Positions 43,624 through 57,292 of a stretch of DNA of 64,000 nucleotides are shown here, piece by piece; the first letter of the stretch is position 1, and each line of letters begins with the position of its first letter. Source of the DNA: an uncultured Methanosarcinales archaeon (GTDB taxonomy: Archaea > Nanobdellota > Nanobdellia > Woesearchaeales > GW2011-AR9). Where the stretch lies: NCBI GenBank assembly GCA_964373955.1, contig CAYJXA010000002.1, positions 5,113 to 69,112 of the forward strand, written 5' to 3'. The position numbers and the translations under genes were made by a program. The notes below the pieces were generated by a model. That model saw nothing but the letters and a program-made list of their open reading frames with translations, was not told where the DNA came from and searched no databases.

Positions 43624-44472
43624 ATGAACATCACTGAACTCATAACCAAAACTGGGCTGCGACAGGGCCTGAGCAGGAATACCCTCAAAACATACTGTTA
43701 TTGCGTGGAAAGATTTTTTCGAATTTGCCGCAAAAATCCCTATGCACTCCGTAAGCAGGACCTTCTGGAGTATATGGACAAACTCATTGAACATAATGCC
43801 CCCGGAAATACTGTAAATGTGCAAATCAATGCATTAAAATTCTTTTACGAACAAGTATTGCATCGCCGACTTACAATTAATCTTCCCATCCAGAAAGTTC
43901 CAAAACGGTTGCCTTATTTTCTGCAGAAAGAACAAGTAATGCTCATGTTGCATCATATTGACAATCCCAAGCACCAGTTGATGATTGCATTATTATATGG
44001 CACTGGCATGCGGGTAAGCGAATTAACTCATCTGAGAGTGCAAGATTTTGTATTCTCTTCCAATTATGGCTGGGTAAGGCAGGGTAAAGGAAAGAAAGAC
44101 CGTTTGTTTATTATTCCTGAGAAATTAAAAGAAAAATTGCAGGAGTATATTATCAGCAACAATTTATCTGCGGAAGATTGGCTCTTCCTTGGTCGGGAGA
44201 ATAATCATTATTCCGATCAGAGTGTGCGTGAGATTCTCAAAAATGCAAAGAAAAAAGCCCGCTTGCAGCAACATGTCTACCCCCATATGCTCCGGCATTC
44301 CTTTGCTACTCACTTCATAGAGAATGGGAACTCCGTGCTTGAGCTTCAGCCCTTGCTGGGGCACAGTAAAATTGAAACAACAATGGTCTATTTGCACTGC
44401 GCCGCACCAAAATTATTGAATTTGAAAAGCCCCCTAGATTCCCTCCCCGAAACCACTCCACAATTCTTATAA
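43624..44472 (+). CDS. tyrosine recombinase, IntI/XerD-like (no IntI-specific insertion evident)
   Basis: [12 protein letters not shown] (Arg I), [10 protein letters not shown] (His-x-x-Arg), [14 protein letters not shown] (catalytic Tyr) and the C-terminal LKSPLDSL tail. Sits 42 nt downstream of the tRNA gene. Confidence 0.85.
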   Translation: [282 protein letters not shown]

Positions 44473-44497
44473 AGATGCCTCCCCGTTAATATTTCCA

Positions 44498-54501: not shown

Positions 54502-56250
54502 TCACTCTACGATCGCCTTAATCCTTCTCACTCCTGCTGCACAGGCTTCTTCTTTCATAATTTTAAAATGGCCAATTTCAGCAGTGTGGTCCACATGAGG
54601 CCCGCCGCAGAATTCTTTGGAATAATCGCCGACAAAATAAACCGACACTATCTCCGGGTACTTCTGTCCAAATTCTTTTTCCGCACCTAATTTCTCTGCT
54701 TCATCTCGTTTCATTTCTTTACGTATTACTTTCAAATCCATTCGTATTACCCGATTGACTTCATCTTCTACTTTTTTTACTTCTTCAGGAGTTAATTTTC
54801 GTTCAAAGCTGAAATCAAATCTCAATCGCTCTGGAGTAATGTTACTTCCCCGCTGATGGATCGCTGGAGAGATTACTTTTCGCAAGGCTTCATTTAATAG
54901 ATGCGTCGCAGTATGCATTCGTATAACCTCTGGAGAAGCGTCGGCTAATCCTCCTTTAAACTTTTTCTCCGCTCCTACCCGAGATAATTCTTTGTGTTTT
55001 TCATATTCTGAGAGGAATCCTTTTACTTCAACTTTAATTCCTTTCTCTGCAGCCAGTTCTTCTGTCATCTCTAGCGGAAAACCATAACTTTGAAACAAGA
55101 GGAAAGCATCTACGCCGGAAATGTTGCTTTGATTGGCCAAGCGTTCAAATTCTTTTAAACCATGCTCCAGAGTTTTCTCGAATTTCTCTTCTTCTTTTTG
55201 CAGCTCGCTATAACTCTGCTCTTTATTCTTCTCTAATTCTGGATATAACTCCTGATACTCATTAATAACCACTTTTGCTAATTCTACAGTGAAAAGCGTT
55301 TTCACTCCAATCATTTTTCCATACCGAACTATTCGGCGGATGAGACGACGTAAAATATACCCCCTATCCACGTTAGAAGGCAGTACGGCATTTTCATCTC
55401 CAAGAATAAAGACTGCTGCTCGGATATGATCTGCAATGATTCTCATGGAGCGAGTTTCCTGGGCATAGCTTTTGCCAGAAATTTGTTCTATTTTTTGAAT
55501 AACCGGCAAGAACAGATCTGTTTCATATGCACTTTTTCTGCCATTCAATACTGCTAACGTTCTTTCTAATCCCATTCCCGTGTCTACATTTTTTTTCGTG
55601 AGGGGAACAACAGAACCGTCTTCTTTTTTATTATACGCCATAAATACATCATTCCAAATTTCTACCCACTGATTATCTTCTGGATCAAAACAGGCAGGAG
55701 GATTACCTTCCCCTTTCCAATAGAACATTTCAGTGCTTGGTCCGCAAGGGCCAGTCTCACCAGCAATCCAAAAATTATCTTTACCAAGGAAGGCGATTCT
55801 CTCTTCAGGAATTCCCGAACTCCGCCAGAGAGCGTAGGATTCCTCATCCCTAGGAACGGATTTATCTCCTTGGTACACGGTTACTGCCAACTTTTTCAGA
55901 GGAATATTTAACCATTTCTTGCCAGTTAAAAACTCAAAACTCCAGGTGATCGCTTCTTTCTTGAAATAATCGCCGAGGCTCCAATTGCCTAACATTTGAA
56001 AGAAGGTATGGTGAGTATTATCACCAATATTCTCAAAGTCTACTGTGCGTAGACATTTTTGGACATTTGCTAAGCGCTTGCCTAGGGGATGGGGAGTTCC
56101 CATCAGATAAGGGACTAAAGGTTGCATGCCCGCGGTATTGAATAATACGGAAGCATCATTGGCTGGGATTAACGAAGCGGAGGGAATGATGGCATGCTGT
56201 TTACTCTTGAAGAAATCAAGGTATTTTTGGATGAGTTGTTTGGCGTTCAT
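54502..56250 (-). CDS. alaS: alanyl-tRNA synthetase, bacterial-type catalytic and editing domains, no C-Ala domain (582 aa)
   Basis: FNTAGMQP, HHTFFQMLGNWSLGDYFK and the editing-site HTATHLLNEAL...CGGPHV. The protein ends shortly after the editing domain. Confidence 0.9.
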   Translation of the reverse strand: MNAKQLIQKYLDFFKSKQHAIIPSASLIPANDASVLFNTAGMQPLVPYLMGTPHPLGKRLANVQKCLRTVDFENIGDNTHHTFFQMLGNWSLGDYFKKEAITWSFEFLTGKKWLNIPLKKLAVTVYQGDKSVPRDEESYALWRSSGIPEERIAFLGKDNFWIAGETGPCGPSTEMFYWKGEGNPPACFDPEDNQWVEIWNDVFMAYNKKEDGSVVPLTKKNVDTGMGLERTLAVLNGRKSAYETDLFLPVIQKIEQISGKSYAQETRSMRIIADHIRAAVFILGDENAVLPSNVDRGYILRRLIRRIVRYGKMIGVKTLFTVELAKVVINEYQELYPELEKNKEQSYSELQKEEEKFEKTLEHGLKEFERLANQSNISGVDAFLLFQSYGFPLEMTEELAAEKGIKVEVKGFLSEYEKHKELSRVGAEKKFKGGLADASPEVIRMHTATHLLNEALRKVISPAIHQRGSNITPERLRFDFSFERKLTPEEVKKVEDEVNRVIRMDLKVIRKEMKRDEAEKLGAEKEFGQKYPEIVSVYFVGDYSKEFCGGPHVDHTAEIGHFKIMKEEACAAGVRRIKAIVE

Positions 56251-56272: not shown

Positions 56273-56286
56273 TTTTATATATTTTT
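56273..56286 (+). promoter_or_regulatory. TATA-box-like element upstream of tRNA-Ala
   Basis: TTTTATATATTTTT lies 21-34 nt upstream of the tRNA 5' end at 56307. Confidence 0.45.
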
Positions 56287-56306: not shown

Positions 56307-56450
56307 GGGCCTGTAGTCAAACGGCTACGATACATCGTTCGCAACGATGAGGTCCGGGTTCGACACAGATCTCCCAGATCTGGTAGGGGGATTCGCGGTC
56401 ACTGCGTTCCCGCTCATACATTTGGGAATACGAAAATCCCGGCAGGTCCA
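56307..56450 (+). tRNA. tRNA-Ala(CGC) with a T-loop intron (about 72 nt)
   Basis: GGGCCUG UA GUCA AACGGCUA CGAU A CAUCG UUCGCAA CGAUG AGGU CCGGG UUCGA [56364-56435] AU CCCGG CAGGUCC A. The G3:U70 identity pair is present. The intron holds the hairpin CAGATCT-CCC-AGATCTG. Confidence 0.8.
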
Positions 56451-56513
56451 TAAACGAAGTGCATGGATCCTGACGGCTCAAAGGGCGCACCCTTTGTTTG
56501 CCGGCAGGTCCAT
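56439..56513 (+). repeat. 13-nt exact direct repeat of the tRNA-Ala 3' end
   Basis: CCGGCAGGTCCAT occurs at 56439-56451 and again at 56501-56513. The hairpin CAAAGGG-CGCA-CCCTTTG (56479-56496) lies between the copies, and a T6 run follows the second copy. Confidence 0.85.
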
Positions 56514-56524
56514 TTTTTAATTAC

Positions 56525-57292
56525 ATGGACCACATCCATTCCTATGATTTTGGACCAAGAGTTCTTAATGGTATAGATATATCAATACCGCAGCCGAATT
56601 ACTTTGTTAAATATGGTGCAGATGCTATTAATTCTCAAAAGAGGTTTCTCCAGAGATTGGGCATAGGACATTTATTTGAACGGAGAGTTATGATTGCTTC
56701 CAATTTTGATAGTAAAATTGTCACCATCAATGACCTCTCTTTCTCAGGGTATGAAACAGAATCAAGAAGCAAGTGCAACGGATTTGATGGAGTTATTGTT
56801 ACGGAACCTGTAATTCCTCTGCTATCAGGTTGGGGAGACTGCCCATGGTTGATGATTGCTTCTGATTCAGTTGTAGGAACGGTCCACGCCGCCAGAAAGA
56901 CGCTCGATAATTATATTTTAAATTCATTTTTCGATGTTTTATCAAAAATTACCCCGCTCAGTTCTTTAAAAATAGGCTTATCCCCTTTTATACCCACACA
57001 CTTGTTTGGCCATCAGCAAGTTCACCTTGAGCGAAGAAGAGAGTGGGAAGATTGCGGGGCAATTCATCACGAACGAGGACAATTTTATATTGATCTTTAT
57101 AGAATGATCTGCGCAGATTTGGAAAAGATTGGCATTGCTAGGGAGCAAATTATGAATGCCGAGTTAAGTAGTTTTGCCCTATCGGAAAGCTCCCATCAAC
57201 ATGGAGGTTACGCCATTTCCCATCGGCATGCGCTGCAAACTCAAAATGCTCGGGAAGGAAGGGGAGCATTCTGTATTATGTTAAAGGATTAG
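56525..57292 (+). CDS. hypothetical, weakly DUF152/PgeF (YfiH)-like
   Basis: DGVIVTEP...GWGDCPWLMI...VGTVHAARKTL loosely resembles the ADCxP and HAGWRG motifs. The ORF track starts at TTG 56498, inside the tRNA 3'-end repeat. Confidence 0.4.
   Translation: MDHIHSYDFGPRVLNGIDISIPQPNYFVKYGADAINSQKRFLQRLGIGHLFERRVMIASNFDSKIVTINDLSFSGYETESRSKCNGFDGVIVTEPVIPLLSGWGDCPWLMIASDSVVGTVHAARKTLDNYILNSFFDVLSKITPLSSLKIGLSPFIPTHLFGHQQVHLERRREWEDCGAIHHERGQFYIDLYRMICADLEKIGIAREQIMNAELSSFALSESSHQHGGYAISHRHALQTQNAREGRGAFCIMLKD

Follow-up and report, generated by a model that had tools for sequence, protein, structure and literature searches.

Several described systems come close to the locus reported here. When elements with archaeal tyrosine integrases of the SSV or pNOB8 type enter a tRNA gene, the foreign DNA comes to lie between two direct repeats of the gene's terminal part (the att duplication), the tRNA stays intact on one side, the displaced original end and its flank lie on the other, and the inner edge of the repeat is in or near a tRNA arm. 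The disruption of a tRNA-Thr gene in Caldiarchaeum is a kilobase-scale analogue of such a tRNA-targeting element (PMC3293823). All of these features are found again at the tRNA-Ala(CGC) gene described in this study. However, the inserts here are 37-111 nt long and free of genes, whereas att sites bound kilobases of DNA together with an integrase. Further differences from att duplications are the conserved hairpins and the inverted target copy inside the modules, the occurrence of one core at different tRNAs with their own duplications, and the use of 5' ends as often as 3' ends. Casposons that integrate at the 3' ends of tRNA genes are reported to give a 14-15-bp target duplication (PMC5137440), and a long target duplication over the tRNA 3' end is likewise seen here. 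Unlike casposons, the modules have duplications of 10-30 nt and show neither casposon terminal repeats nor casposon genes, and Cas1 is absent from the genome (no PF01867 match in an assembly that is 93% complete). The non-canonical bulge-helix-bulge (BHB) introns and the 'intron transposition' of Thermoproteales, and those at 59/60 of ARMAN/DPANN archaea, also place small structured inserts in tRNA transcription units. A hairpin core is common to the module and to 59/60 and anticodon-loop introns of relatives, and related sequences are found at several tRNAs. In contrast to these introns, the module lies outside the mature tRNA, has no strict BHB at its boundaries and is flanked by a duplication. 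MITEs, REP/BIME and the Rickettsia palindromic elements are tiny non-coding hairpin repeats in many copies, as the modules are, and a related hairpin sits in an element with terminal inverted repeats in one relative (genome G050). The tRNA-Ala module, however, has no terminal inverted repeats of its own and has target-derived arms, and the modules as a whole show a strong preference for tRNA ends and long duplications of variable length. Full-text literature searches returned no published description of such tRNA-end modules. They are set apart from att duplications, casposons and BHB introns by their miniature size, their lack of genes, the inverted target copy, the variable duplication and their occurrence at both gene ends. 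Among them, the tRNA-Ala module is well conserved and has formal support from covariation.

The findings bear on how archaeal tRNA genes come to have introns, splits and fragments; a 2026 census of the introns in Asgard tRNAs detected no general way in which they arrive (bioRxiv 10.64898/2026.10.13.758758). The tRNA-end inserts of this lineage are many and small, and their boundaries can still be recognized as exact duplications. Close relatives show such sites both filled and empty, and real introns contain the same hairpin cores. With these features, population metagenomics and small-RNA mapping could test the insertion process directly. Extra copies of tRNA ends are also at risk of being misannotated as att sites or tRNA fragments.

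The tRNA-Ala(CGC) locus and its second 3' end

The window, that is, the whole 64,000-nt stretch of DNA analysed, corresponds to positions 5113-69112 of contig C2 of a genome (G000) of 1.38 Mb with 41% G+C, assembled in 32 contigs. Archaeal marks in this genome are an initiator tRNA with A1:U72, an archaeal RNase P RNA and BHB-type tRNA introns. Within the window the sequence CCGGCAGGTCCAT occurs twice with a start-to-start distance of 62 nt (Table 1). Copy 1 consists of the last 12 nt of tRNA-Ala(CGC) and one trailer base and is followed by AAACG; copy 2 runs into a T-run. The first-pass annotation had described this duplication, the perfect hairpin in front of copy 2 and the T-run after copy 2 rather than copy 1, and our analysis confirms all three at the coordinates in Table 1. 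What it had overlooked is an imperfect inverted copy, X', of the repeat X inside the spacer. Once the intron is removed, ARAGORN recognizes a 72-nt cloverleaf, tRNA-Ala(CGC), with G3:U70. In unspliced form the gene is overlooked by both ARAGORN and Rfam because of its 72-nt T-loop intron. The 3' exon that had been proposed is real, but the BHB rule gives it a length of 14 nt instead of 15, an immaterial shift of one base.

Table 1. Coordinates of the features of the tRNA-Ala(CGC) locus (window positions) and of tRNA-gene ends with outside copies in G000 (window positions or contig:position).
Feature	Position	Strand	Remarks
TATA-like box (TTTTATATAT)	56273..56282	+	read from sequence; centre about 29 nt 5' of tRNA position 1; putative promoter
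tRNA-Ala(CGC) 5' exon, positions 1-59	56307..56364	+	ARAGORN on spliced sequence
T-loop intron at 59/60	56365..56436	+	BHB rule: TTCG/CGAA central helix, 3-nt bulges
tRNA-Ala 3' exon, positions 60-73	56437..56450	+	BHB rule; discriminator A at 56450
Proximal repeat X	56439..56451	+	T-stem 3' strand from position 62, acceptor 3' strand, discriminator, one trailer base
Linker (AAACGAAGTGC)	56452..56462	+	single-stranded in predicted fold
X' (ATGGATCCTGACGG), imperfect inverted X	56463..56476	+	12 pairs, one bulged T, one A-G mismatch; covaries with X across genomes
Cap hairpin CAAAGGG-CGCA-CCCTTTG	56479..56496	+	with preceding CT, family motif CTCAAAGG..CCTTTG
Linker TTTG	56497..56500	+	four-base linker ending TG in 6 of 8 tRNA-Ala modules; AT in G068, AA in G211
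Distal repeat X, exact copy	56501..56513	+	helix 1 with X'
T-run TTTTTT	56513..56518	+	earliest run of at least 5 T past the tRNA; likely terminator
3' type, initiator tRNA	47518 / 47588		21-nt copy
3' type, tRNA-Ala	56439 / 56501		13-nt copy
3' type, tRNA	C20:4673-4499		13-nt copy
5' type, tRNA	C7:29924		19-nt copy
5' type, tRNA-Thr	C1:152361		18-nt copy
5' type, tRNA	C2:88641		two upstream copies, 10 and 11 nt

The module unit is made up of a 49-nt spacer and the 13-nt copy, 62 nt in all. Where the spacer begins, the tRNA is already complete through its discriminator, and the proximal copy alone keeps the tRNA-Ala gene whole. In the predicted fold X' pairs with the distal X, the A-G mismatch falls at the junction of acceptor and T-stem, and the CAAAGGG hairpin forms the cap. 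The resulting long hairpin, as predicted, mimics the acceptor-plus-T-stem 'top half' of tRNA-Ala, with A3-U70 instead of G3:U70. Spacer and distal copy together have a predicted folding energy of -29 kcal/mol (z about -4 against dinucleotide shuffles). An Rfam E-value search over 11 module loci identified no family that matches the module.

One explanation for such an arrangement is that the unit is an intron with ambiguous boundaries, or that a duplication of the 3' exon gave birth to the T-loop intron, since splicing that joins a point within copy 1 to the matching point in copy 2 would leave the tRNA unchanged. In agreement with this, the hairpin core is also present in real T-loop and anticodon-loop introns of relatives, and the inner edge of the repeat (position 62) lies only 2 nt from the 59/60 intron site. 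However, a BHB scan for strict motifs, which recovers the 59/60 introns at C20 and C2:88641 and misses the relaxed 59/60 motif of tRNA-Ala, finds no motif that would remove exactly one unit at any of the six loci. Inspection by hand shows that the repeat contains a single self-complementary 4-mer, CCGG, and that the helices beside it have 1 and 0 pairs. Furthermore, the tRNA is already completed by the proximal copy, the distal copy has a G where C61 is needed, and the module also stands behind tRNA-Ala genes that clearly lack a T-loop intron in five genomes (G008, G073, G016, G068 and G211). The intron reading is largely refuted and in our judgement highly improbable. The link to T-loop intron birth that had been suggested for both loci of the window does not survive these intron-less genes either, nor the finding that the initiator tRNA of G000 has an anticodon-loop intron only and that 5'-end versions of the module exist.

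Two further observations concern the surroundings of this gene. The T-loop intron of tRNA-Ala (56365-56436) is itself multi-copy, with copies of 81-91% identity in G001 (two), G023 (three) and G015, G008 and G017 (one each). Upstream and divergent from tRNA-Ala, a 582-aa ORF on the minus strand (54502-56250) reads like a bacterial-type alanyl-tRNA synthetase when its translation is inspected by eye. This adjacency was not found in the relatives examined, and a search of relatives for synteny of the alanyl-tRNA synthetase and Cu-oxidase_4 neighbours found none.

Copies of tRNA ends across the genome

To our scan, which required a T-arm, acceptor pairing and U8 and allowed T-loop introns, the genome yields 38 tRNA genes, a list that may be incomplete. 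ARAGORN reports 6 tRNA genes, and the Rfam tRNA model has 11 matches at E<=1, of which 5 exceed the cut-off, compared with about 38-40 in the home-made scan. Standard finders thus detect 6 to 11 of about 40 tRNA genes in G000, in which a T-loop intron is present in around three quarters and intact T-arms number about 11. Outward exact copies of at least 13 nt are found at 5 of the 76 tRNA-gene ends, where about 0.08 are expected (binomial P about 2e-8). The background for this comparison comes from random 35-mers, 0.1% of which are copied outward over at least 13 nt within a distance of 400 nt. An exact copy of the gene's own end, outside the gene and within 400 nt, occurs at 6 of the 38 tRNA genes (Table 1). 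The duplication of the initiator-tRNA 3' end, with copies 70 nt apart, had been reported before and holds. The genome-wide survey of tRNA ends, which the first-pass annotation had proposed, reveals that the enrichment goes beyond its two initial cases. Its idea of a recurring mechanism at tRNA ends is supported by the six genes, by the involvement of both 3' and 5' ends, by conservation in relatives and by a unit-sized indel (see below).

The genome contains 44 exact direct repeats with a length of at least 13 nt and a spacing of 20-300 nt, and a 13-mer repeat alone is therefore not rare; the longest of those outside tRNA genes are coding repeats. When the 13-mer search was extended genome-wide to distant copies of tRNA ends, chance matches swamped the result. 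This frequency of short-range repeats would suit a reading in which the repeat is a chance event, or in which copy 2 is the promoter or 5' region of the downstream gene of the Cu-oxidase_4 family (56525-57292), whose ATG lies 12 nt past the end of copy 2. Such a reading is hard to reconcile with the enrichment at tRNA ends, or with the presence of the module behind tRNA-Ala in 8 genomes with unrelated neighbours. In addition, contigs of a related strain from the source samples keep the module (5 substitutions, 2 indels) although the tRNA has another intron, of 36 nt, in the same place and the downstream flank differs, so copy 2 is part of the tRNA unit and not of the Cu-oxidase_4 gene. We consider this explanation refuted and the least probable of all, with a likelihood close to nil. 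The earlier statement that chance is unlikely is correct for the position of the repeats at tRNA ends but not for a bare 13-mer repeat. That copy 2 might belong to the 5' region of the downstream gene had been named as a possible objection, and the comparative data, in which copy 2 travels with the tRNA, answer it.

The modules follow a common order. In the 3' type, the tRNA end X is followed by a short linker, X', a hairpin, a short linker, X again and a T-run. The 5' type is its mirror image, with a TATA box, the distal X, one or more hairpins, X', a leader and the true tRNA. At tRNA-Ala and the initiator tRNA the T-run, the likely terminator, comes after the distal copy, and at C7 the distal copy is preceded by the TATA box. 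This would place the module inside the transcription unit. A strong fold closed by the X/X' helix is predicted for 4 of 6 modules (z -4 to -5.2), and the initiator-tRNA and tRNA-Thr modules fold weakly. The duplicated length ranges from 10 to 30 nt across modules, and two or more units are present at the loci C16 and C2:88641.

The module in related genomes

We searched the family (114 genomes) and the remainder of the order (394 genomes) for the tRNA-Ala module with the pattern GGCAGGTCCA, 35-65 nt, GGCAGGTCCA. The module is present in 7 of the 114 family genomes, belonging to 6 of 58 genera (G000, G008, G073, G016, G021, G068 and G122), and in 1 of the 394 others (G211, from another family). 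The tRNA-Ala genes of the congener G001 and of G024 are without it. All eight modules share the predicted fold, with spacers of 37-60 nt, and the genes around them are unrelated between loci. In a structural alignment of the eight modules, 92.7% of cells are paired, compared with 39-60% in slid controls. Two-sided, compensatory changes are seen at 8 pairs, 6 of them among the 7 hairpin pairs, in what is an alignment of eight sequences only that was fitted to the model. Differences in the T-stem between genomes (CCCGG, CTCGG, TCGG) are tracked by both the distal copy and X'. In every genome the distal copy equals that genome's own tRNA end, and exact identity reaches into 1 to 8 trailer bases, differing between genomes. 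In the DNA contigs from four runs we saw no joint that skips the 62-nt unit, a result that concerns contigs only and is no evidence of absence.

These data could also be explained if the module were a selected cis-acting element of the pre-tRNA and not primarily an insertion, with the trailer minihelix and T-run acting as a terminator, a processing aid or a decoy of the tRNA top half. The fold with compensatory changes across eight genomes, the identity of the distal copy with each genome's own tRNA end and the T-rich run behind the helix at most loci all fit this proposal. So does one part of a strand-asymmetry test that weighs an RNA-level against a DNA-level fold: among 12 modules of the 3' type there are 10 in which the antisense strand does not fold better than the sense strand. 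In the 5' type the asymmetry is mixed, and the test as a whole does not separate the two levels of folding. The restriction to 7 of 114 family genomes and the absence from the congener indicate that the tRNA-Ala module is dispensable. Archaeal termination requires no hairpin. The proposal also leaves unexplained why mirror-image modules stand at 5' ends, why unrelated tRNAs have cores in common, and why copies are found in introns or stand alone. As an explanation for the locus as a whole we regard it as unlikely, although it deserves more weight than the intron reading.

A comparison of filled and empty sites is possible at C20. In G001 the order is tRNA, TTTATTGTCCT, tRNA-Lys, and in G000 a 59-nt unit follows the tRNA and precedes TTTAGATTCCT and tRNA-Lys. 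The two genomes differ here by exactly one unit between homologous flanks. The homologous C20 unit of G003, which belongs to another genus, keeps these linkers, and its hairpin differs in a compensated way. This indicates that the C20 module is old, and the empty site of G001 may represent a precise secondary loss between direct repeats. No syntenic empty site was found for tRNA-Ala, as G001 and G024 lack the module but have flanks that are not alignable with those of G000. The tRNA-Ala flank of G001 resembles the flank after copy 2 over about 10 A/T-rich bases only, which is too weak to call an empty site.

Another interesting aspect is the reuse of spacer cores at different tRNAs. The 16-nt core AAAGGGCGCACCCTTT is identical at two loci of G000, tRNA-Ala and the C7 5' module, and genome-wide at these only; a generic genome-wide search for CAAA..TTTG hairpins was too unspecific. 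The spacer core of the initiator-tRNA module (GGGGTTGATAAGGGG..TTATGTGAGA) is found in G001 behind another tRNA, flanked by a 21-nt duplication of that host tRNA's own end and trailer, and the initiator tRNA of G001 has no module. A partial copy of the same core is located behind the C14 tRNA of G000. Across the 114 family genomes the motif CTCAAAGG..CCTTTG has 47 matches, compared with about 10 for the control pattern, an excess of about 5-fold. Its contexts include the 3' modules that follow tRNA-Ala and a second tRNA (G058, G120), the 5' modules of an Arg-like tRNA, where the duplications measure 14-30 nt (G059, G113, G118), genuine introns in the T-loop at 59/60 (G121) and in the anticodon loop (G123), and a stand-alone copy (G122). 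The motif is also part of the G050 element, which is about 125 nt long, has terminal inverted repeats and is present in at least 4 copies. We observed that this element (C26, C53, C68 and C86) contains four hairpins between the inverted repeats TATACTAAAA...TTTTAGTATA at its ends, and that its hairpin CTCAAAGGGATATTCTTCCCTTTG recurs in 5' tRNA modules of other genera.

Proposed insertion and trimming, and candidate enzymes

Our preferred reading of these results is that the repeat encloses a single unit, and that this unit belongs to a family of small non-coding hairpin modules that are specific to the lineage and located at tRNA ends. We judge, with somewhat better than even confidence, that the 62-nt unit is a small non-coding insertion module that would duplicate its target, be transcribed as part of the trailer and be trimmed by RNase Z. 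The duplication would arise at insertion, as a target duplication. Because the duplicated segment spans the T-arm interior, from position 62, to just past the gene end, the tRNA gene stays intact, and its old end, now the distal copy, and the original terminator would be shifted 62 nt downstream. Transcription would then run from the TATA-like box to the T-run, the module would form the 3' trailer of pre-tRNA-Ala, and an RNase Z cut after A73 would free the structured trailer. At 5' modules RNase P may have the equivalent trimming role. Both RNase P RNA and RNase Z are encoded in G000, so ordinary end trimming is available. Units would be gained and lost whole, with recombination or slippage between the direct repeats leading to an 'empty' site. 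Any function of the predicted minihelix is one that we infer.

X' is target-specific, so a generic mobile sequence does not explain it, and it must either arise at insertion or evolve later. The maintained identity of the distal copy and its complementarity to X' have several possible explanations. Selection may act on the minihelix, for example if it sequesters a copy able to mispair with the 5' strand of the tRNA. Homogenisation in a fluctuating tandem array is possible because loci with at least two units exist at C16 and C2:88641. X' may also have a guide role in targeting. Conservation of the module with its X' across genera and the perfect identity of the copies are no less compatible with a selected function or concerted evolution than with a recent insertion. 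We speculate further, and consider it quite doubtful, that the modules are active self-targeting mini-elements in which X', as an RNA or single-stranded DNA guide, pairs with a tRNA end and directs insertion, and that the same machinery puts related hairpins into T-loops and anticodon loops. If this were true, these loci would represent a visible intermediate in the origin of archaeal tRNA introns and disrupted tRNA genes.

Another rival view is that the two copies are attL and attR of an element which targeted the T-arm and 3' end of tRNA-Ala through a tyrosine integrase and has since lost nearly all of its interior. The repeat does extend from the T-stem to just past the gene end, like classical tRNA att sites, and the Caldiarchaeum case (PMC3293823) is a known analogue at the kilobase scale. 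At C16 of G000, and also in G001, two tandem 114-nt units lie behind a tRNA (C16:4365-4568) and are followed by an abutting 419-aa integrase. This protein is a tyrosine recombinase, and all nine of its homologues with enough upstream sequence lie directly behind a tRNA. Within the C16 units the tRNA end is present in imperfect copies (11-12 matches out of 13; p about 0.001 in G000 and G001). However, a tblastn search with the three integrases of G000 has no match closer than about 1.5 kb to the 8 tRNA-Ala modules, and spacers of 37-60 nt with a conserved architecture and compensatory changes do not look like remnants of random deletion. A 62-bp unit is also probably below the size that can be excised as a double-stranded circle. 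Moreover, one core is found at different tRNAs with their own 21-nt duplications that include trailer bases, which a copy carried on attP cannot give, and 5'-end versions exist as well. The expectation of one element for one target does not hold for the sister module, that is, the initiator-tRNA core in G001. We therefore consider an integrase scar unlikely, to about the same degree as the cis-acting element. The integration and excision suggested in the first pass can be retained in a loose sense only, given that neither integrase nor cargo is present between or near the copies at any of the eight tRNA-Ala loci and that an attP-borne copy cannot account for one core with target-specific duplications at different tRNAs.

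For the insertion module that we favour, the search of G000 yielded no candidate for a mobilising enzyme: neither a Y1/IS200 transposase nor Cas1 was found there, and the lone reverse transcriptase shows no link to the modules. This protein has 551 aa with RVT_1 and a C-terminal HTH_40 (C15:2712-4367; L088:1213-2868, minus strand), and next to it are two ORFs of unknown family.

Some minor observations on integrase-adjacent tRNAs and hairpin elements were also made. The proposal that an X'-hairpin-X arrangement is general at integrase-adjacent tRNAs was rejected by a shuffle test, except in G000 and G001. Only the C16 locus thus shows an association with an integrase, and at the homologues of this integrase in other genomes the pattern lacks significance. 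In the window, a tRNA-Arg(UCU) gene with a 103-nt anticodon-loop intron has a 287-aa tyrosine recombinase 43 nt behind it (43405-44490), and a second copy of the end of this tRNA was not found on the contig. The units at C16:4365-6061 (L060, L061) also carry an inverted piece of the tRNA 3' end and a CCCC..GGGG hairpin. Finally, a hairpin element of about 75 nt (GTCATAAAAATGCGGGAAATCGCC...CCCCGCATTTTTAGG) is present in five copies in G000 (C10:19228, C18:8940, C21:46, C22:7892 and C25:1908). Its 3' arm and T-run are like the 3' end of the C14 tRNA, and a second conserved hairpin lies behind it. This five-copy element may be a stand-alone tRNA-end mimic or a MITE.
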